From Candidatus Kaiserbacteria bacterium RIFOXYD1_FULL_47_14 (GTDB taxonomy: Bacteria; Patescibacteriota; Minisyncoccia; Phycocordibacterales; Phycocordibacteraceae), in contig MFMU01000003.1 of NCBI GenBank assembly GCA_001781915.1, positions 1,188 through 57,968 on the forward strand: a stretch of DNA of 56,781 bases, read 5' to 3'. The notes under the pieces were generated by a model. It searched no databases and was not told the origin of the DNA. It worked only from the letters and a program-made list of their open reading frames with translations. Positions 27,690-37,334 of this stretch are shown one piece after another (the first letter of the stretch is position 1; every line of letters starts with the position of its first letter). Position numbers and translations under genes: made by a program.

Positions 27690-28793
27690 ATGGTAAAAAA
27701 ACCGTCTTTCTGGAAATTGGGGGCTGCTGTCTTTGGGATTCTTCTGGTTGTGATTGTGTTCTTGAACTTATTCACGGACTCAGTCGATATCTTCGGAGAG
27801 AAGCATGGTTTGGGAACGATAATGCTCTGCACTCTCTTGCTCTACACAGCGGCGAGTTTGCGCATTGTCGGTCCGAAAGAGCTGGGGTGTGTTCTGATCT
27901 TCGGCAGACCACTGAAGAATGTTTCTTCTGGTCTGGCCATTGTTCCGCTATGGATCTGCACACTGGTAACCGAAACGCGGCTCGTCATACAGGACGAACT
28001 TCCCGCGGAACCGGAAAAAATCTACCGTGGTAGCGAGGGGGATACTGAGGGTAGTACCGTGCCGCCGGAATTGCAAGCGCTCGGTATGAGACCGCCAATC
28101 AGGGTTACTTTCGCCGGTAGAAATGAGGCAAAAAATACAGCTCTTGGTCTGAACATCGATAAAGATGATCCATACGATAATCGCATGACCGAAGAAGTCG
28201 TGCCGGTGATTCGTTGGAAAATTGGTGACTTCAAAACTTTCTTGACAGTTATCGGTTCAGTCGATGAAGCAAGGAAACAGATGGAGGACACCTGCGTGAA
28301 GATGTTCACCGAAGAACTAACAAAGGTAAGCCCAGCAGTTGCTCTCCTCCGCATCAGCGAGTACAGCACCATTCTCCAGAATGCAATCGAAAAACTGGTG
28401 CGTGGCGACAATATCAATCCTGGTTGGGGTATTCATCTTGAGAGCGCCCAAATCAAGGCGATCAGATTTTCAAAGACGCTCAATGTCGCAGTTCAGAATG
28501 TTGTGGTACAAGAACGCCAAAAGAAAGCAAAAATCCTTGAAGGCCAAGGTCTCGGCGGGAGAGAACAAGCAATAATTGATGGTCGCACTGCGGGTCTACA
28601 AAAAATGATGACTGACCTGAAAGTGGAAGGTGAAGTTGTCCTTGGCGCTGAAACTGCTCGCGCTATTGCGGGAGAAGGCGACAAATCAAGTCAACGGACG
28701 ATCATTGCTGGTTCTGGCGGTTTCTCCGATCTGATCGGTGCGGCCGTAGCCATTGGTGAAAGTTTGAAAGCTAAAAAAGGAGGCGAGAAATGA
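27690..28793 (+). CDS. SPFH/Band-7 (stomatin/prohibitin-like) domain protein, module 1
   Basis: N-terminal TM, then RIVGPKELGCVLIFGRPL..GLAIVPLWI, typical of the start of the SPFH domain. Coiled-coil-like C-terminal half. Confidence 0.7.
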   Translation: MVKKPSFWKLGAAVFGILLVVIVFLNLFTDSVDIFGEKHGLGTIMLCTLLLYTAASLRIVGPKELGCVLIFGRPLKNVSSGLAIVPLWICTLVTETRLVIQDELPAEPEKIYRGSEGDTEGSTVPPELQALGMRPPIRVTFAGRNEAKNTALGLNIDKDDPYDNRMTEEVVPVIRWKIGDFKTFLTVIGSVDEARKQMEDTCVKMFTEELTKVSPAVALLRISEYSTILQNAIEKLVRGDNINPGWGIHLESAQIKAIRFSKTLNVAVQNVVVQERQKKAKILEGQGLGGREQAIIDGRTAGLQKMMTDLKVEGEVVLGAETARAIAGEGDKSSQRTIIAGSGGFSDLIGAAVAIGESLKAKKGGEK

Positions 28794-29524
28794 TCTTGTC
28801 ATGCATTTTTCTTGCCTTTCTAGTTGGCATCATTGTTTGGCGGATCATTCTGCCAAACATGAATCTCGCGCCAAAAGTCAAAGCTGGCAACGGAGTTTCT
28901 TCACCAACTGGTTCAACACTTCGTTCGATTATGGAAATAACGAAGGGAAATCTGTGGACCATTTTGTTTGCCATCGCCGCAGCGATTGTACTCTTCTTCG
29001 GTGTCTTCGGTTCTGCGCTAAAGACACCGAGCTTCTCAGAAGTTGGGGGCCTAGGCCATGCTAAATGGCTCTGGATCCTTATCCTCTGGGGGCTCGGTTA
29101 TGGGCTCATCGCGTTCAATACTAAAGGAACGGCAGCGAAAACGCTGCAGAACATTCTGACGACTGTGGCAATTTCGCTCTTGGTGCTTGGATTGTTCACG
29201 AGCCAATGTTCTGGCCCGCGCACGGTTCCCCCTCCCCCGCAAGCGAATACAACTACTATTCCGCTCGCGTATGAATCACGATTGTCCTGGCAATTGATTT
29301 TGCCGCCTGGCGGAAAATCGGAACTCATTCGAGTTTCGCCTGACATGCGCCTTACGGTAAATGGGCGTGGAGCCGACCTTCATACCGTCTACGAGGATGG
29401 CCACGAAAGTGTCATCCCCGTGGAATCAAATGGTTCAAACCCTGCGGGAAAGAAAGTCGGTTCCTATGTAACAAACCGGCTGCAGAAAACAAATGTCGTT
29501 TACTGCAGCATTACCCCAAATTGA
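28790..29524 (+). CDS. multi-TM protein with C-terminal beta-rich domain (partner of SPFH, module 1)
   Basis: ATGA overlap with the upstream gene. ~4 TM segments. Paralog of 30621..31337. Confidence 0.6.
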   Translation: MILSCIFLAFLVGIIVWRIILPNMNLAPKVKAGNGVSSPTGSTLRSIMEITKGNLWTILFAIAAAIVLFFGVFGSALKTPSFSEVGGLGHAKWLWILILWGLGYGLIAFNTKGTAAKTLQNILTTVAISLLVLGLFTSQCSGPRTVPPPPQANTTTIPLAYESRLSWQLILPPGGKSELIRVSPDMRLTVNGRGADLHTVYEDGHESVIPVESNGSNPAGKKVGSYVTNRLQKTNVVYCSITPN

Positions 29525-29548
29525 AGTTCTTTCTGTACAAAAAAGAAA

Positions 29549-29580
29549 AAGACCGCCCGGTTTACTTGGCGGTCTTTTTA
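29549..29580 (+). terminator. intrinsic terminator
   Basis: AAGACCGCC-cggtttactt-GGCGGTCTT + TTTTA. Confidence 0.75.
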
Positions 29581-29665
29581 TTTGACTTTTCTATAGTCTC
29601 CTGTACTGTCTCTACTAGAAAACAGTTCTTTCAATCAGACAGAAACTCAAAAAAGGAGAAGTGAA

Positions 29666-30619
29666 ATGAAAAAGATGTCACCAGAGATTGCTCGCATTAT
29701 TGGGATTGTTTCCGCAGTTGCACCACTACTGATTATTTCCGTGATTGGATGGATGCTCGGTTCATTTTTGGCAGGTTTCTATGCCAGTGCTGTGTGGATC
29801 GGTGTCTATCTCGCATGGAACATCGGCATCATCGGGCAACAGGACTGGCAAGTCATCGAACGCTTCGGGCAATTCTACGAAGTGAAACTTCATGGATTTC
29901 GGCTCTATTGTATGCTCGGTCTTGTCGACAAAATAAAAGCAAGAGGCAATCTTCTCGAACGCAAAAGAGCGCTCTTCGAAGGTCTCTCGACGAACAATAA
30001 ACCGAAAGAAATCGACTTCACCAATGGGTCGGCGCCGATCGAGGCCTATATGTGGTATAAGAACGGTCGCCCGAACGCGAACAACGACGAAGAAGTGAAG
30101 GAGGATATCATTGCCTACACTTACACGAACAAGGACCCAGAAGTTCGGGCTGTTCAGATCACCGAAGATCGGCTTCGACCGAAATTCCAAGAGATGGATA
30201 TCGACACGGCTTCAAAAATGCGCGCAGTCATCGTCAACGGAGCGAAAGACGATATCGCGAGAGAGTTAAAACCGTATGGTCTGTATTTCTCTAAAGAACC
30301 GCCGATTGTCATCACTGACATCGGACTTACCGAAGATGCGAAGAAATTCCGGCAGGAACGGTTTCGCGGTCAAACAACAGCGGACGAAATCGCGAACGAA
30401 GCCGATGGATATCGCAGAGCAGTTGAAGCGATTATGCGACGCAAGAATCCTGACGGAACAGAAACCGAGGTATGCGACTTCGAAACCGCGGCAAGAATTT
30501 GGCGAGAACAACAGACCCGAAAGATGTTCGAGAAAACAAGGTCGAATATCACCGTCATTGCTGAGTCCGCAACAGGCGTCGTCAAGACATTCGACATCAA
30601 TACGAAGAAAGGAGAATGA
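29666..30619 (+). CDS. SPFH/Band-7 domain protein, module 2
   Basis: AAAGGAGAAG SD. TM helices, then QQDWQVIERFGQFYEVKLHGFRLY (SPFH start). Confidence 0.65.
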   Translation: MKKMSPEIARIIGIVSAVAPLLIISVIGWMLGSFLAGFYASAVWIGVYLAWNIGIIGQQDWQVIERFGQFYEVKLHGFRLYCMLGLVDKIKARGNLLERKRALFEGLSTNNKPKEIDFTNGSAPIEAYMWYKNGRPNANNDEEVKEDIIAYTYTNKDPEVRAVQITEDRLRPKFQEMDIDTASKMRAVIVNGAKDDIARELKPYGLYFSKEPPIVITDIGLTEDAKKFRQERFRGQTTADEIANEADGYRRAVEAIMRRKNPDGTETEVCDFETAARIWREQQTRKMFEKTRSNITVIAESATGVVKTFDINTKKGE

Positions 30620-30620
30620 A

Positions 30621-31337
30621 ATGCCCTTCATCTATGCAGTACTCATACTTCTCGCGGCCTTCTTTCTCATCATCGGCATCCGTATCTTTAACAGCACGAA
30701 GTTTGTAGGAACAGATGCTGGCATCGGAAAGATAATTTCATCGTTCACTCTGAAAGGAGTGTTCACGGTACTGTTCATCATCTCTGGCATAACGATCTTT
30801 TTCTGGAAACTCTATACTCCGGGACTGCAATCTTCACAAGTTGGAAGTTGGAGCTGGAACCGCTGGCCATGGATCCTCGTCTTATGGGGAATCGGATACG
30901 GACTCATCGCATTCAACGCGAAGACACTGGGGAAAGCGACTGGAACGCTGCAGAACATTCTGACGACTGTGGCAATTTCGCTCTTGGTGCTTGGATTGTT
31001 CACGAGCCAATGTTCTGGCCCGCGCACGGTTCCTGCCACACAAGCGAACACTACGAGCACAACTATTCCGCTCGCGAGTGCTCCGATTGCCGAATGGCCG
31101 ACATTGACCATACCGGCAGCTGGAAAGTTAGAACTCATTGCACCACCGCACGGAATGCATGTTATGGTATACGGGCATAATGCCAACTTGCATACTGTGT
31201 ACGCAGATGGGCATGAAAGCGTAATCCCTATTGAATCTGACGGATCAAATCCCGATGGTCCAGTAGTCAAAGAATATCTGACGAACAGGGTGAATGAGAT
31301 AAATATTGTCTCAGTCGCTTACTCAACAAAAAAATGA
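30621..31337 (+). CDS. multi-TM protein, partner of SPFH module 2 (start reassigned from 30276)
   Basis: ATG at 30621 lies 1 nt after the SPFH stop, preceded by AAAGGAGAA. Product MPFIYAVLILLAAFF... is a paralog of 28790..29524. Confidence 0.65.
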   Translation: MPFIYAVLILLAAFFLIIGIRIFNSTKFVGTDAGIGKIISSFTLKGVFTVLFIISGITIFFWKLYTPGLQSSQVGSWSWNRWPWILVLWGIGYGLIAFNAKTLGKATGTLQNILTTVAISLLVLGLFTSQCSGPRTVPATQANTTSTTIPLASAPIAEWPTLTIPAAGKLELIAPPHGMHVMVYGHNANLHTVYADGHESVIPIESDGSNPDGPVVKEYLTNRVNEINIVSVAYSTKK

Positions 31338-31360: not shown

Positions 31361-31392
31361 AAGACCGCCTAGTAAACTAGGAGGTCTTTTTT
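31361..31392 (+). terminator. intrinsic terminator
   Basis: AAGACCGCCTAG-taaa-CTAGGAGGTCTT + TTTT. Confidence 0.7.
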
Positions 31393-31405: not shown

Positions 31406-31681
31406 CTATGATGGCGACAATATCTTCTGGATTGTCCCTAAATCGAACGCGCCCATTGCGACATTAATGATGCCGTATGCGCCGAAGATGATGACAAGAC
31501 CTATAAGACCCCAGAAGATTGCCATGCGGCCTTCCTCGCGTTTTGTTTTATCCCCTGCATTTGCAACAAACTCAAATACGCCCCATAGAAACACGACGAA
31601 TGCTACCGCAGACAAAAGCAAGATCAATGGATTGATAATCTGCGCGGTAACCTTTGCAACGAATGAGTAGAGAGCGGGCAT
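31406..31681 (-). CDS. TrbC/VirB2-like two-TM small protein (T4SS-pilin-like), paralog 1
   Basis: Helix, charged loop (GDKTKREEGR), then WGLIGLVIIFGAYGIINV. Confidence 0.6.
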   Translation of the reverse strand: MPALYSFVAKVTAQIINPLILLLSAVAFVVFLWGVFEFVANAGDKTKREEGRMAIFWGLIGLVIIFGAYGIINVAMGAFDLGTIQKILSPS

Positions 31682-31697
31682 TACTGATTACTAAGCG

Positions 31698-32066
31698 TTA
31701 TATGGTCTTTGCTGCCGGTGGAGTAACGGTGGCGTTGTTGAAGCTGACGGTGCCCGTAAGGACATTCACCAGACCCCAGACCGATACCATCACGAAGAAG
31801 CCGATAAGACCCCAGAGCATAAGGTTCTTGCTTTTTTCTTTCACCTCTTCATTATTGGCGCCAATGATAAAGGTCTCGAATGCGCCGTAGATGAAGACGA
31901 TGAATGCGAGAGAGAAGATAACCGGAACGATAATGTTGTTAATAGTATTGATAATGAACGAGCCGGCATCAGAAATATTATTGACCGAAGTAGCGGCAGC
32001 GAGAGAAACAAGCGGTAAAGCGAACACAGCAAGTGCTAAAGAAGTTTGGATAAAAGTTTTTTTCAT
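31698..32066 (-). CDS. T4SS-pilin-like protein, paralog 2
   Basis: Signal peptide (ALPLVSLAAA). FIVFIYGAFETF-(NNEEVKEKSK)-LMLWGLIGFFVMVSVWGLVNV. Confidence 0.65.
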   Translation of the reverse strand: MKKTFIQTSLALAVFALPLVSLAAATSVNNISDAGSFIINTINNIIVPVIFSLAFIVFIYGAFETFIIGANNEEVKEKSKNLMLWGLIGFFVMVSVWGLVNVLTGTVSFNNATVTPPAAKTI

Positions 32067-32157
32067 AGGGCAAATAAGCGATTAATGTAGTAATTGTAGC
32101 TTTTCTGTCGCGATGGTCAATGCGCTTTTAAGCAGCGTGTGGATAATCTTGCCAAAG

Positions 32158-32631
32158 CTACCAATTAGCTTTACAAACCCCAGTGAGGTGACCACCCCCT
32201 AGTCCGTAACAAACACCAGAATTACACTGAGAGAGTTCCGTGCATTCGGCACCATTAGGCAAGTTTGTAAGTCCGGAAGCACCCGGTCGAGTAATGGAGG
32301 TGCTGCTGAAGCCAATCGTACCAGTCAGGACATTCACGAGTCCCCAGACCGATGCCATCACGAAGAAACCGATAAGACCCCAAAGCATAAGATTCTTGCC
32401 TTTTGTCTTCACCTCGTCCGAAGTAGCTCCAACGATGAAGGTCTCGAATGCGCCGTAGACGAAGACGATGAACGCAACCGCGAAGAGAATCGGAACGACG
32501 AGATTGTTAATAATACCGATAATGAATGAGCCGGCATCAAAAACATTACCGATCGTGGTGGCAGCAAAAGAAACCAGCGGCAGGGCGAGTGCAGCGAGCG
32601 TTAAAGAAGTAAGAGCAAGGGTCTTTTTCAT
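32158..32631 (-). CDS. T4SS-pilin-like protein, paralog 3, with Cys-rich C-terminal tail (start reassigned to MKKTLAL)
   Basis: The core is ~90% identical at nucleotide level to paralog 2, including the 5' leader. Tail is CTELSQCNSGVCYGLGGGHLTGVCKANW. Confidence 0.65.
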   Translation of the reverse strand: MKKTLALTSLTLAALALPLVSFAATTIGNVFDAGSFIIGIINNLVVPILFAVAFIVFVYGAFETFIVGATSDEVKTKGKNLMLWGLIGFFVMASVWGLVNVLTGTIGFSSTSITRPGASGLTNLPNGAECTELSQCNSGVCYGLGGGHLTGVCKANW

Positions 32632-32722
32632 AAGGCAAATAAACGAATAATGTGGTAATTGTATTCCTTCTGCTGTATCGGTCAATACCCTTCTAGAAGG
32701 CGTGTGGATAGTCCTTTCATAA

Positions 32723-33505
32723 TCAATTAATCTGGACGCACTTACCTCCGTCGGTGTTGTCTGTGCAATAAGAATTGCATGTGTACTCAGCTAACTTAGA
32801 TGGATTATTGGCACTGTAATAATCAGATGCCTTGTAATCGCCACCATAAGATCCTGAACCTTCTTGGCAAACCCAGATATCGCCAGCACTACCATTATCT
32901 ACAACGCAAAAACCAGTCGCCGAACATTTGAGGACATCAGAATCGCAATGCTTACCCCAATTTAAAAAGGAAGCTGGACAACACTTGGCCCCTACTGAGT
33001 CACATGATGTATCAGGTTTTGCCGCGTCGCCAGTACCACCCACGCCACTACTGTCATTGTCAGTATTGCCACCAACATTGCCACCCGACATAGGAGATGG
33101 TCCTGAACTACCTCCCCCCCTGCCGATGGTTGGAGGCGTCGGCGCATTCGCGGCGCCAAGGCCGAGCGTACTCGTAAATATACTGACAATTCCCCAGATG
33201 GAAAAGATGATAACAAGGCCAATGATGCCGTAGAGCGCGAATGTCTTCCCTTTTTCGCGTTCTGTTTCATTATCGGCATCTCGAATGAAATATTTATAAA
33301 TGCCCCAGAGAAAGGTGGCGAATGCAAGCGCAATGAGCAAGGGAACGAGATACGAGTTGATGATATCGCTAATGCTCGTGTAGTAGCCCTCAATATATTT
33401 CGTGTCGATGCCAGTCGGAAAAACCTCAGCCGCGAATACCAAAAGCGGCGCGCTGAAAGATGCAAAAAGAACGAGAGGTGTGGCGAGGCGAAAGATTTTT
33501 TTCAT
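32723..33505 (-). CDS. T4SS-pilin-like protein, paralog 4, with Gly/Ser linker and large Cys-rich C-terminal domain
   Basis: Core FLWGIYKYF-(DADNETEREKGK)-FALYGIIGLVIIFSIWGIV. This is followed by GGGSSGPS...GG and then ~12 Cys. Confidence 0.65.
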   Translation of the reverse strand: MKKIFRLATPLVLFASFSAPLLVFAAEVFPTGIDTKYIEGYYTSISDIINSYLVPLLIALAFATFLWGIYKYFIRDADNETEREKGKTFALYGIIGLVIIFSIWGIVSIFTSTLGLGAANAPTPPTIGRGGGSSGPSPMSGGNVGGNTDNDSSGVGGTGDAAKPDTSCDSVGAKCCPASFLNWGKHCDSDVLKCSATGFCVVDNGSAGDIWVCQEGSGSYGGDYKASDYYSANNPSKLAEYTCNSYCTDNTDGGKCVQIN

Positions 33506-33514
33506 AATATTTTA

Positions 33515-33970
33515 TTAGTCAGTTGGGTATGACACTGGCGAATACGGTGCAGAATAGCCCCAGAGGTCAAGGGTGTTCACGACAATATTCACCAGCCCCC
33601 AGACCGAAATCATAACCGCAAACCCTATAAGCCCCCAGAGCATAAGCTGGTGACCCTTGGTCACTGCTCCCTCATCGCCTTTCGAGAAGATATATGCTTG
33701 AGCTATGCCGTATAAGAAGACAATAAAAGCAACAGCGAAGAGTACCGGCACCAAGACGCCGTTGATGAGATAGATGACATACATACCCAAGCACTCGATG
33801 TATGTATATCCATCTTGTAAACAAGCGCCAAAAGTGCCCCCAGAATCACCCGAACCAAAGTTGACTAATACTTTTATTGCGGCGTCGGCAGACGCAAAAG
33901 CAGGCGTGAGAAATGCGACGAGAGCGAGAGCGGTGCGAGTGATTGATTTCATATACGGTAAGTATGACAC
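33515..33970 (-). CDS. T4SS-pilin-like protein, paralog 5 (start uncertain: GTG 33970 or ATG 33952)
   Basis: Signal peptide (FLTPAFASADA). FIVFLYGIAQAYIF-(SKGDEGAVTKGH)-LMLWGLIGFAVMISVWGLVNI. Confidence 0.6.
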   Translation of the reverse strand: MSYLPYMKSITRTALALVAFLTPAFASADAAIKVLVNFGSGDSGGTFGACLQDGYTYIECLGMYVIYLINGVLVPVLFAVAFIVFLYGIAQAYIFSKGDEGAVTKGHQLMLWGLIGFAVMISVWGLVNIVVNTLDLWGYSAPYSPVSYPTD

Positions 33971-33971
33971 A

Positions 33972-34244
33972 TCACGCGGCGGGCGCGATGCCGAGCGTGG
34001 ATAACAATAAGTTTACGAACCCCCAGATCGAGAAGTATACGACCATGCCGAGAATGCCCCAGAAGATAAAATCACGGCCTTCTTTCAGTTTCTCTGTGTC
34101 CCCCTCGTTATTGATGAAGAAGTACTTCACAACGCCCCAGATGAAAACAAGAAATATAAGCGAACCGATGAGCGGTACGACAACGGTGTTGATAACACCG
34201 ATGATGCCTTCGGAACCACTGCCGACAAATTGGGCGAATGTCAT
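33972..34244 (-). CDS. T4SS-pilin-like protein, paralog 6 (start reassigned to MTFAQF)
   Basis: GGAGGA SD lies 5 nt before the ATG at 34244, 1 nt after the stop of paralog 7. Core FLVFIWGVVKYF-(NNEGDTEKLKEGR)-FIFWGILGMVVYFSIWGFVNL. Confidence 0.6.
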   Translation of the reverse strand: MTFAQFVGSGSEGIIGVINTVVVPLIGSLIFLVFIWGVVKYFFINNEGDTEKLKEGRDFIFWGILGMVVYFSIWGFVNLLLSTLGIAPAA

Positions 34245-34245
34245 A

Positions 34246-34635
34246 TCATCCTCCAGTAGAGAGCGCCGCCACAGTCGCTTGAATGCCGAGCGATATTGCC
34301 TGCGCGCCAAGCAGTATTAATGCTCCGACGACGGTCCAGAGGAGCGCATCTTTCGCTTTAGTAATTTCACCCGGCACGCCACGCGCAACGACGAAGAGAT
34401 ACCCGACATAAATGAGCATAAATATAACAACGATTGAGCCGATATAGACGACGAATTGCAGAATACTGGCGAGGAATGCAGATAGGCAATTGCCGTCGCC
34501 ACTACTGCAATCAACGCCCTTGAGCGGATTGATGAGAAAGATAGGGTCTGAAGAAGGAGTATCACTTGCTGCGAACACTATACCAGCAGGCAGACAAGCG
34601 AAGATAAAAAACAAAACGATGACGAGATAACGCAT
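34246..34635 (-). CDS. T4SS-pilin-like protein, paralog 7 (most divergent)
   Basis: Signal peptide. IFMLIYVGYLFVV-(ARGVPGEITKAKD)-LLWTVVGALILLGAQAI. Confidence 0.55.
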   Translation of the reverse strand: MRYLVIVLFFIFACLPAGIVFAASDTPSSDPIFLINPLKGVDCSSGDGNCLSAFLASILQFVVYIGSIVVIFMLIYVGYLFVVARGVPGEITKAKDALLWTVVGALILLGAQAISLGIQATVAALSTGG

Positions 34636-34662: not shown

Positions 34663-35961
34663 TTATTGCAAGAGCGCGGTCAAAGAACGCTCGGCAGAAA
34701 CGAGCGCAACAGAAAGCGATGAGCGACCGCTTATCACATCAGTAATCATACCCGAAAAGACAGCATCAGTATCGGCAGGCGTTGGGGATAGCCATCCTTT
34801 AGAATAGAGCGCCTCGGCATACGCGACCGCGGAAGCCGAGTCGGCTGGTACTGTCGCGAGTTCGTTTAAGACCACAGGTGCGAGCCCCGTCGCAGATACT
34901 GCGGCATTTTGTTCAGCCACATTCGTGAGAAGCACAGCGGTCTGATAGGCGCCCGATGAGTTATTCGCTCCGCGCGGAATCATAAATGCGTAGACGAGGC
35001 CGAAGGCGCTCTTTATAGTTGCGGTAGCTGGCTGTGGCAGAGGAGTAACGCTGAAGTTCAGATTCGGATTTGCCGTTTTGAAGAATTTTGCTTCAGAAGC
35101 GTAGCCAAGATAGAGCGCGAGGTCGCCATTCTGGAACATCTGCTGTGAATCCTGCAACGATGCGTTCCATGTATACGAGACCTTCGAAGGGTCGGCGAAT
35201 TGCGTATAGAAGCCGAGCACTGACTCCCCCGATGGCACTCCGCTAGAAGTATTTGTACCGAGATTAGCAGTGAGCGTCCCGACGGAAGAATGCGAGGAAA
35301 TCGGAACGCCTGCTTGTATAAAGAGCGCAGAGAGGATTCCTCGCGCATTATGCACATTGTCATAAGTACCGAGTGCGATAAGACCGCGCGTGATCTGTCG
35401 CGATGGCGAAAGGATTGCTACGCTCGGCACAAGACCCATCAAGGCCTCCCATGTAGTTGGCGGTTTCGCGATACCGCTCGAAGCGAGGATGGCGCGATTC
35501 GAGAAGAGGACGAGCGGATCAACAAGAAACGGTATTCCGTAATAGCCGCTAGGAGCAGCAAAAATACTCGCTTCTTCAATAAAGGTGTTCGCAAAGGCGG
35601 ATGTCGAAAGCGATCCTGACGGTATCGGAGCGATGAACTTCGCAATTGAACGCAGTTCCTCTTGCGAAGCGAGAACGAGATCAGGAGCGAAGCCGGTAGC
35701 TATCGCAGAAGCGAGATCGCTCGCAAGCGTCGCGGAGTTCTTTCGCACATACGAAACATTCTTGAGAAGCGGTTCGGATTGTGCTGCAGCAGTTAAGGCG
35801 GACTGCATCTCTTCTGTCGGCAAGATGCCCCAAATAACAACTGTACCGACAGCATTCCTGCTGTTTCCGCTATTAGAATAGGTTGCGAAGACGAAAAGAC
35901 CGACAAGAGCCGCAAAAATGAACACGCCGAACAAAATACCTTGGAATAAAGAAATTTTCAT
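34663..35961 (-). CDS. membrane-anchored extracellular solute-binding-protein-like protein
   Basis: N-terminal TM anchor. VVIWGILP...GFAPDLVLASQEEL resembles family-1 ABC solute-binding proteins. Assignment is tentative. Confidence 0.45.
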   Translation of the reverse strand: MKISLFQGILFGVFIFAALVGLFVFATYSNSGNSRNAVGTVVIWGILPTEEMQSALTAAAQSEPLLKNVSYVRKNSATLASDLASAIATGFAPDLVLASQEELRSIAKFIAPIPSGSLSTSAFANTFIEEASIFAAPSGYYGIPFLVDPLVLFSNRAILASSGIAKPPTTWEALMGLVPSVAILSPSRQITRGLIALGTYDNVHNARGILSALFIQAGVPISSHSSVGTLTANLGTNTSSGVPSGESVLGFYTQFADPSKVSYTWNASLQDSQQMFQNGDLALYLGYASEAKFFKTANPNLNFSVTPLPQPATATIKSAFGLVYAFMIPRGANNSSGAYQTAVLLTNVAEQNAAVSATGLAPVVLNELATVPADSASAVAYAEALYSKGWLSPTPADTDAVFSGMITDVISGRSSLSVALVSAERSLTALLQ

Positions 35962-35963
35962 AA

Positions 35964-36500
35964 TTATGGTGCAGTAAAAATAATGCCGTAATGATGCGGT
36001 CCAGCACGGAATGATTTCACTTTATGGAATCCGCCATTGATAAAGAGCTCCTCGGCGCTATGCTCGGTCACAACTTGTTCTGGCGCAGGACCCATACCGC
36101 CGTAACTGCCTGCCCAATCGATAACCATCAGCTTGCCGCCCAATTTCAGCACGCGCCGTATCTCTCCGATAAGCCCATCGCGATTCTCGATTTGGAAAAG
36201 CACATTGGCGAGGATGGCCGCGTCTAGCGAAGCATCGCGCAAATGCGTACCACCCAATTTCTCAATGTCGCCCCAGACCGTATCAATAATACTGTGATGC
36301 GAGAAATGCGTGTTGAGTTTCAAATGTTTGAGGATGTTTTCCTGCACATCAATCGCATATACCTTTCCGTCATAGCCGACGATAGCCGCTGCCGCGCGCG
36401 CATAATGACCAGAGCCCGCGCCGAAATCGCCGACTTTCATTCCCTCGCGCAGACCCAAATGCAGCACATTCTCTCTTGGAGAACTGAAAGAAGCATTCAT
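35964..36500 (-). CDS. class I SAM-dependent methyltransferase (start reassigned from 36548)
   Basis: VGDFGAGSGHYA (motif I), VYAIDVQ, GGKLMVIDW. The longer ORF would read through a GC-rich palindrome. Confidence 0.7.
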   Translation of the reverse strand: MNASFSSPRENVLHLGLREGMKVGDFGAGSGHYARAAAAIVGYDGKVYAIDVQENILKHLKLNTHFSHHSIIDTVWGDIEKLGGTHLRDASLDAAILANVLFQIENRDGLIGEIRRVLKLGGKLMVIDWAGSYGGMGPAPEQVVTEHSAEELFINGGFHKVKSFRAGPHHYGIIFTAP

Positions 36501-36516
36501 ACCTATAAAATACCAT

Positions 36517-36539
36517 GCGCGGCCCGCTGCGGGCCGCGC
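36517..36539. repeat. GC-rich 11-bp-arm palindrome
   Basis: GCGCGGCCCGC-t-GCGGGCCGCGC, followed by the tandem decamer ATCAACACCC x2 (36541..36560). Confidence 0.8.
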
Positions 36540-36594
36540 AATCAACACCCATCAACACCCTTATAAAAATACCTTGATCTCCTATACCCACAAC

Positions 36595-36641: not shown

Positions 36642-37334
36642 ATGGGGTACCGCGAAACAGGACTCGGCGCATATGTGCATGTTTGTAATCGCGGAGTAAA
36701 GAAGATGCCTATTTATCGTCACGAGACTGATTTGCGGCGTTTACATTCCCTCTTGTTCTATCTTAATCATAAAGAACCGATGCCGGATAATTGGACTAGA
36801 GATATTGAGGGAGGACTTAGTTCTCTGTCTTGGCCATCGTCATGGCAACCGCGCGAACCGATAGTGTCGATTCTTGCTTTTACACTTATGCCGAATCATT
36901 TTCATCTTTTTCTAAAAGAAATTACTGAAGGAGGGATCGCAAAATTCATGCATCGCGTTTCAATGGCGTATTCAAAGTTTATTAATCAAAAATACGGCGA
37001 AAGCGGACGTCTCTTTGAGGGTACATATAAATCACGAATTATTGAAGAAGAAACGGATTTCAAAAATCTTGCGGCGTATATTATGGTTAAAAATACTTTT
37101 GAATTATATCCTGGAGGATTAATGACCGCCTGCAGAGAATTTGAACCGGCATACGCGAGTGCGTTACATTATCCGTTTACCAGCTTAAAAGATTATGAAC
37201 ACTCTGAACACATATCGCCTATTTTAGACCGCGAACTTCTTGGTGAGCTCTTTGACAATTCTCACTCTTTTAAGAGTTTTGCTCAGGAATGTATGCTCCA
37301 TCGACTTGACGAACTCACCGAGCATCATTTGTAG
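36642..37334 (+). CDS. IS200/RAYT-like HUH (Y1) transposase, copy 1
   Basis: HUH motif LMPNHFHLFL. Tyr-helix AAYIMVKN. Flanked by inverted palindromes. Confidence 0.7.
   Translation: MGYRETGLGAYVHVCNRGVKKMPIYRHETDLRRLHSLLFYLNHKEPMPDNWTRDIEGGLSSLSWPSSWQPREPIVSILAFTLMPNHFHLFLKEITEGGIAKFMHRVSMAYSKFINQKYGESGRLFEGTYKSRIIEEETDFKNLAAYIMVKNTFELYPGGLMTACREFEPAYASALHYPFTSLKDYEHSEHISPILDRELLGELFDNSHSFKSFAQECMLHRLDELTEHHL

Follow-up and report, generated by a model that had tools for sequence, protein, structure and literature searches.

A Kaiserbacteria operon joining a methyltransferase and an orphan solute-binding-like protein to a tandem set of seven VirB2-like pilin-family proteins

We analyzed a tandem array of seven VirB2-like, pilin-family genes located in a 56,781-nucleotide stretch (hereafter the window; positions 1,188 to 57,968 of contig MFMU01000003.1, here C3) of the genome of Candidatus Kaiserbacteria bacterium RIFOXYD1_FULL_47_14, which was assembled into 23 contigs totaling 628 kb with 94% completeness. 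The array is part of one operon encoding, in this order, a methyltransferase, a membrane-anchored orphan solute-binding-like protein, and the seven VirB2-like proteins. As judged by sequence comparison, the latter represent six ancient, non-interchangeable subunit types and one later duplicate of type 5. The genes almost certainly belong to the pilin arrays already known in Patescibacteria.

A preliminary description of the window, made from the letters and a list of open reading frames (ORFs), placed seven consecutive minus-strand genes at positions 31406-34635, and the ORF list bears this out. Numbered g1 to g7 by increasing coordinate, the genes are transcribed, as read off the strand, in the order g7, g6, g5, g4, g3, g2, and g1; the slots named below are the array positions recovered in a phylogenetic tree. 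The mechanically assigned ORF starts were too long for three genes, the likely starts being ATG 32631 for g3, ATG 33952 for g5, and ATG 34244 for g6, the last of which lies 1 nt past the g7 stop. The features of the operon are the following.

35964-36500, minus strand: class I S-adenosylmethionine-dependent methyltransferase, first gene of the operon (PF08241, E 5.8e-15).
34663-35961, minus strand: solute-binding-like protein of the sugar type, SBP_bac_8/SBP_bac_1 (PF13416, E 2.5e-19).
34246-34635, minus strand: g7, slot 1; 129 aa, signal peptide, Cys pair in the N-terminal segment (PF18895, 32.9 bits).
33972-34244, minus strand: g6, slot 2; 90 aa, without signal peptide or tail (PF18895, 33.1 bits).
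33515-33952, minus strand: g5, slot 3; 145 aa, signal peptide, short Pro-rich tail (PF18895, 23.1 bits).
32723-33505, minus strand: g4, slot 4; 260 aa, signal peptide, hairpin, Gly/Ser linker, and 141-aa tail with 10 Cys (PF18895, 42.1 bits).
32658-32685, minus strand: promoter-like site TTGACC-N16-TACAAT before g3, with 10 of 12 consensus matches.
32158-32631, minus strand: g3, extra slot-5 copy; 157 aa, 46-aa tail with C-x5-C-x4-C-x10-C.
32093-32120, minus strand: promoter-like site TTGACC-N16-TACAAT before g2, twin of the g3 site.
31698-32066, minus strand: g2, slot 5; 122 aa (PF18895, 37.6 bits).
31406-31681, minus strand: g1, slot 6, last gene; 91 aa, without signal peptide (PF18895, 34.2 bits).
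31368-31381, no strand assigned: terminator-like hairpin CCTAGTTTACTAGG with T runs on both strands, closing the operon and a convergent gene.

Pfam searches assigned all seven genes to the family T4SS_pilin (PF18895), named after type IV secretion systems (T4SS), in agreement with the preliminary assignment. The E values of 9e-11 to 8e-5 obtained for each gene exclude chance. Six of the genes cleared the gathering cut-off of 26.6 bits, with scores of 32.9-42.1 bits, and g5 remained under it (24.7 bits in the genome scan). The same family was matched at E <= 0.01 by all 125 array members from 21 genomes, while PF04956 (TrbC) was matched by 24 of the 125 and any other family by no more than 5. 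Within the window, the best TrbC match was that of g7 (22.4 bits, E 1.5e-4, profile match over positions ~34-98). All 10 tested orthologs of slot 1 also matched TrbC, with E values of 7e-8 to 7e-5; two of them reached its gathering cut-off of 27.9 bits (33.0 and 27.9 bits), and the other eight scored 23.5-27.8 bits. Sub-threshold matches of array proteins to a mycoplasma integrative and conjugative element (ICE) pilin-like family were found in NCBIfam. The link of the family to VirB2 is based on the family definition in Pfam, the TrbC matches of slot 1, and published structure-based annotation.

The shared two-helix architecture, motifs, and charged loop noted in the preliminary description are visible in the alignment. 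Helix 1 ends with F(I/L)(Y/W)G and is followed by the charged loop and by helix 2, which carries the motif (L/F)WG(L/I)(I/L)G...S(V/I)WG(L/I)VN. The signal peptide, described as optional, has a cleavable appearance in five of the seven proteins and is missing in g1 and g6. An AlphaFold2 model of g2, built from 42 aligned sequences (mean predicted local distance difference test score, pLDDT, of 74), comprised helices at residues 2-25 (the signal peptide), 31-68, and 73-110, the latter two forming a helical hairpin; the means of 10-residue blocks were 82-92 across residues 41-100.

Proteins of the window have close homologs that are named Candidatus Kaiserbacteria or Paceibacterota. Matches to PF18895 were present in 30 of 31 relatives. 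Arrays were compared in 20 relatives, 12 of the same genus and 8 of other families of the order, and in all of them the solute-binding-like gene is followed by 4-8 pilin-like genes. In a tree of the 125 hairpin domains, in which the genus is represented by 13 genomes including this one, six clades were recovered within the genus, each corresponding to one array position, and the order of the positions was constant. These clades comprised 13 genus genomes for slot 1 (g7, support 0.94), 12 for slot 2 (g6, 0.986), 11 for slot 3 (g5, 0.81), 10 for slot 4 (g4, 0.94), 13 for slot 5 (g3 and g2, 0.96), and 13 for slot 6 (g1, 0.984). The nested clades of slot 3 were weakly supported (12 tips from 11 genomes, 0.81; 13 tips from 12 genomes, 0.41). 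Slots 1 and 6 could also be recognized in other families of the order (support 0.987 and 0.977). Within the genus, domain identity inside a slot was 54%-77%; the solute-binding-like protein reached 62% and the methyltransferase 72%. The median ratio of nonsynonymous to synonymous substitution rates (dN/dS) across slots was 0.11-0.25. Slot 5 is the most conserved paralog, with a domain identity of 77% and the lowest dN/dS of 0.11 within the genus; g2 had more than 1,100 homologs, and the best 120 listed were 67%-81% identical to it. No pseudogenes or silent cassettes were present at the array. The preliminary description proposed that the array diversifies a surface structure. Because the slots are orthologous, conserved in order, and under purifying selection, the array does not appear to be a diversifying repertoire, and its members are better described as a fixed set of non-redundant subunits.

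The exception to the one-gene-per-slot arrangement is the pair g2 and g3, which had been taken for recent duplicates with about 90% identity including the 5' leaders. The observed values were lower: the proteins share 68% identity along 119 aa, and the DNA, leader included, 77% along 434 nt; the remaining paralog pairs were 19%-45% identical. With a dN of 0.17 and a dS of 0.48 between the two genes, the duplication was not very recent. Since g3 and g2 are sister tips in the hairpin-domain tree (support 0.89), they represent a species-specific duplication of slot 5 in this genome.

The genes preceding the array were correctly identified in the preliminary description as encoding a solute-binding-like protein and a methyltransferase, but not as parts of the locus: both are conserved operon members rather than incidental neighbors. 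They lie on the same strand, separated by 2 nt, and the solute-binding-like gene is separated from g7 by 27 nt. The methyltransferase gene precedes the solute-binding-like gene in each of the 19 loci of relatives that extend that far, the 20th (L010) being cut there, and in all 29 further loci of the class from other genera. The complete order of methyltransferase, solute-binding-like gene, and pilin-like genes was observed in 28 of these 29 loci, the 29th being cut by a contig end. In 16 of 20 loci from other classes, 2-6 pilin-like genes come immediately after the solute-binding-like gene, in the same orientation; the methyltransferase gene stands beside it in only 1 of the 20. Of 201 genomes sampled from the class, 187 contained a matching solute-binding-like gene, nearly always in one copy, and such a gene also occurred in 122 of 151 genomes across the phylum. 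This partner is not mentioned in the main text of two previous studies of Patescibacteria pilin genes (PMC12102498 and PMC10633639), and a full-text literature search found nothing on the link.

The solute-binding-like protein consists of 432 aa and has an N-terminal membrane helix as an anchor. Among solved structures, sugar-binding proteins come closest to it (E 5e-6). No permease and ATPase genes of a type that would match it were found in the 94% complete genome. The protein is considered an orphan because its gene gives the sole SBP_bac_8 match in the genome and the sole BPD_transp_1 permease appears to be of another type. The latter is encoded at C13:8307-9795, paired with an ATPase and without an adjacent binding-protein gene, and by inspection looks like the nitrate/sulfonate type.

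The promoter-like sites before g3 and g2 tie for the top score in the region. The same TTGACC-N16-TACAAT site precedes slot 5 in 10 of the 13 genus genomes. Being the most conserved and having its own promoter-like site, slot 5 is the candidate major subunit.

The window contains no VirB4, VirB6, or VirD4 genes, as stated in the preliminary description, and no match to them was found on its whole contig. The components of a T4SS were searched for in the rest of the genome. A T4SS core cluster was located at C17:21559-28290, near yidC and rnpA. It encodes, in order, a PrgI-like protein, a 231-aa ORF, a 607-aa VirB4, proteins of 159 and 329 aa, a 297-aa pilin-like protein with a Cys-containing C-terminal domain, and a 395-aa protein. 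The PrgI/VirB3-like gene matched PF12666 (39.7 bits), and the 607-aa VirB4 matched PF19044 (84.6 bits) and the CD1110 family NF045971 (372 bits against a cut-off of 325). The N-terminal domain of VirB4 (PF03135) had no match in the genome, and the monoderm-type VirB4 was found with PF12846, PF19044, and NF045971. Since the 231-aa ORF matches the N-terminal part of monoderm VirB4 and TrsD, the ATPase is split. VirB4 is 66%-91% identical in five relatives from the genus, order, and class.

A candidate channel component, an 829-aa polytopic protein, was found beside ksgA at C14:6773-12066, which agrees with the published chromosomal context. In the genome scan it gave a weak match to TrbL/VirB6 (E 1.3e-3), and as a whole it has no Pfam or NCBIfam match; because of the weak TrbL match, the VirB6-like label is tentative. 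Its secreted neighbor of 933 aa gave only a sub-threshold Pfam match to Toxin_12. No VirD4-type coupling protein was found in the genome, and the surroundings of the VirB4 cluster showed neither a relaxase nor a coupling protein, relaxases not having been the target of a dedicated search. The preliminary description regarded a genome without any secretion ATPase or channel genes as grounds for rejecting its proposal; with a secretion ATPase and a candidate channel protein encoded here, this is not the case.

One more hairpin-containing protein, of 335 aa, is encoded at C6:12445-13452. Its N-terminal part is a PF18895-like hairpin (25.3 bits), to which a C-terminal domain of about 200 aa is fused; in this domain, the motif SHQNGYKVDL resembles the zinc-binding motif of M15-type cell-wall peptidases, although without Pfam support.

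The array proteins differ in what follows the hairpin. Slots 2 and 6 have neither a signal peptide nor a tail. Short Pro-rich tails close slots 3-5, and variation between species is confined to these C-terminal tails. Cys-rich modules are sporadic, occurring in slot 4 of three genomes including this one, in slot 3 of three others, and in slot 5 only in g3. Long Cys-rich tails comparable to that of g4 were found in 3 of 10 slot-4 orthologs. The tails of g4 and g3 had no Pfam match above threshold, and only knottin-type families were hit below it (Antifungal_pept for the g3 tail). The Cys-rich modules are probably extracellular, because both termini would be outside the membrane; the disulfide-type composition fits this location. 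The Cys motif of the g3 tail also occurs in the VirB6-like protein and its 933-aa neighbor on C14, which is a weak hint of a connection between the array and the T4SS.

Pilin arrays of this kind have been described previously. In Candidatus Southlakia epibionticum ML1, the T4SS cluster, which is essential, was reported to include a series of predicted pilins, and the PF18895 proteins SEML1_0014-0019 were scored essential in the supplement (Wang et al. 2023, PMC10633639). A survey of 383 assemblies revealed 441 arrays of 2-11 pilin genes, with a mean paralog identity of 25% and a maximum of 54%, and speculated about host-range versatility (Quinonero-Coronel et al. 2025, PMC12102498). In enrichments of Paceibacteria, T4SS pilins were among the most highly expressed unknown genes (PMC10936435). 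Given the arrays in PMC10633639, PMC12102498, and PMC12857230, the kind of feature is already known.

The arrays of the survey consist of at least two tandem PF18895 or PF04956 genes in a genome with VirB4; here seven such genes and a monoderm-type VirB4, TrsD, and PrgI were found, and paralog identity is similarly low (PMC12102498). Unlike the surveyed arrays, which were sought within 20 genes of virB4, this one is far from it. The arrays of that study were most abundant in Microgenomatia and Saccharimonadia, whereas this one belongs to Paceibacteria (Kaiserbacteria); one paralog pair, with 68% identity, exceeds the reported maximum, and neither the solute-binding-like partner nor a fixed slot order is mentioned there. 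The Southlakia series likewise consists of tandem diverged PF18895 proteins, six of about 130 aa, two of which also match PF04956, and its T4SS also has no recognizable coupling protein. However, that array lies inside the T4SS cluster, divergent from a VirB6-like gene and without a solute-binding gene, and its essentiality was shown experimentally.

Like the array proteins, TrbC/VirB2 conjugative pilins such as TrwL of plasmid R388 combine a signal peptide, a pair of hydrophobic helices, and a short charged loop. TrbC/VirB2 pilins polymerize into an extracellular pilus and are processed by signal peptidase and, in some systems, by cyclization. In Gram-negative bacteria, TrbC/VirB2 is usually encoded by a single gene beside virB3 and virB4. 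In contrast, no T4SS gene was found on the contig of the array, the host is a monoderm, and in some members a large Cys-rich module forms the C terminus. Neighboring pilin paralogs are also known from the T4SS of Bartonella and Anaplasma, where the tandem virB2 copies are regarded as variable surface antigens, whereas the slots described here are fixed and under purifying selection.

On balance, we slightly favor a mechanism in which a T4SS builds a heteromeric pilus- or stalk-like structure from the slot subunits. Each hairpin protein would first enter the membrane, its two termini lying outside and its charged loop inside. From there, the chromosomal monoderm-type T4SS would extract these pilin-like proteins and assemble them into the heteromeric surface structure, in which slot 5 could be the abundant major subunit, and the other slots could provide initiator, adaptor, or tip subunits in low copy number. 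The Cys-rich C-terminal modules that slots 3-5 sporadically carry would point outward and serve as contact domains, and the solute-binding-like protein could act at the cell surface together with this structure, either as a receptor for a ligand or as a partner in assembly.

Several observations weigh against this mechanism. In the four relatives with both loci on one contig, the array and virB4 are about 80-360 kb apart (~360 kb in G017, 246 kb in G019, 81 kb in G048, and 88 kb in G108), so that the array is linked to the T4SS by family only. None of the window proteins reached the TrbC cut-off. A Foldseek search of the g2 model against the Protein Data Bank (PDB) gave no match with E <= 0.001, and the 50 best hits did not include a pilin; simple hairpins are hard for Foldseek. 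Alignment of the family profile to the single R388 TrwL sequence with hhalign failed (probability 0.8%), and a PDB profile search with the 125 pilin domains returned chance hits only. No Patescibacterium is known to display a pilus made of this family, and a 2025 review still considers a pilus unproven in Patescibacteria (PMC12857230).

The same data could mean that the hairpins and the solute-binding-like protein form a membrane-embedded complex that operates independently of the T4SS, such as a binding-protein-dependent receptor or uptake channel, and never a filament. This seems unlikely to us, although it would account for the succession of solute-binding and hairpin genes in 20 of 20 relatives, 28 of 29 loci of the class, and 16 of 20 loci of other classes, as well as for the binding protein having no cognate permease in the genome, the separation of the array from virB4, and the absence of structural matches to solved pilins. 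Sub-threshold matches of slot 1 to DctQ, the small subunit of binding-protein-dependent transporters (E ~1e-3), point in the same direction, but they are under the cut-off and could be due to hydrophobic composition alone. Moreover, TrbC/VirB2 matches 24 array members and any transporter family at most 3. The family also occurs within the Southlakia epibionticum T4SS cluster, where it has no solute-binding gene as a neighbor, and another member stands beside VirB4 in this genome.

A broader proposal, in which we place little confidence, unites the orphan solute-binding-like protein and the set of six pilin types into one apparatus for the capture of a host-derived molecule, most likely a sugar or glycan, with a T4SS-built pilin tube as a conduit or with assembly gated by the binding protein upon contact with the host. 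Such an apparatus would provide a binding-protein-dependent route of uptake or sensing replacing ABC permeases in these reduced bacteria, and the co-transcribed methyltransferase might modify one of its components.

It is also improbable that the array is a repertoire of interchangeable pilin variants diversifying the surface for different hosts or for escape from recognition, as was also speculated in PMC12102498. The paralogs are indeed only 19%-45% identical to each other, the tails of slots 3-5 differ by species with Cys-rich modules coming and going, and one species-specific duplicate has acquired a new tail here. On the contrary, 13 genus genomes share six orthologous slots in one constant order, the first and the last slot are recognizable across the taxonomic order, identity within slots (54%-77%) is similar to that of the neighboring genes (62% and 72%), the median dN/dS is 0.11-0.25, and no pseudogenes or silent cassettes accompany the array. 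Finally, the genes can hardly encode small membrane proteins of another origin, for example holins or toxin-like peptides, whose likeness to pilins is limited to hydrophobicity: the two-helix hairpin is a simple fold for which Foldseek offered no specific relative, but PHROGs gave no holin match, the PF18895 and TrbC matches were consistent, and the genes form a conserved chromosomal set across much of the phylum.

The surroundings of the operon were also inspected. The methyltransferase ORF reaches GTG 36548, but the likely start is ATG 36500. Inside this 5' extension, at 36516-36540, there is a GC-rich 25-nt palindrome TGCGCGGCCCGCAGCGGGCCGCGCA, which looks like a repetitive extragenic palindromic (REP)-type hairpin and suggests the start at ATG 36500. 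The palindrome is adjoined by an IS200/Y1-type transposase-like gene at 36642-37334 (PF01797, E 6.7e-8). At the other end, two paralogous genes for multi-helix membrane proteins flank an SPFH/Band-7-like gene (PF01145, E 2e-4, under the cut-off) on the plus strand at 28790-31337, converging on the end of the pilin operon. Several relatives carry homologs of these membrane proteins in the same place.

Patescibacteria, which seem to live on other cells, account for a large part of the bacterial diversity that is still uncultured. The T4SS and the pilin series are essential in the one species tested. The locus is a further example of this known system, no new kind, and it sharpens the question of what the structure does: there appear to be six fixed subunit types, one of which is a candidate major subunit, and an orphan sugar-type binding protein heads the set in much of the phylum. 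Being soluble and expressible, the solute-binding-like protein offers a handle for finding the ligand and hence the function.

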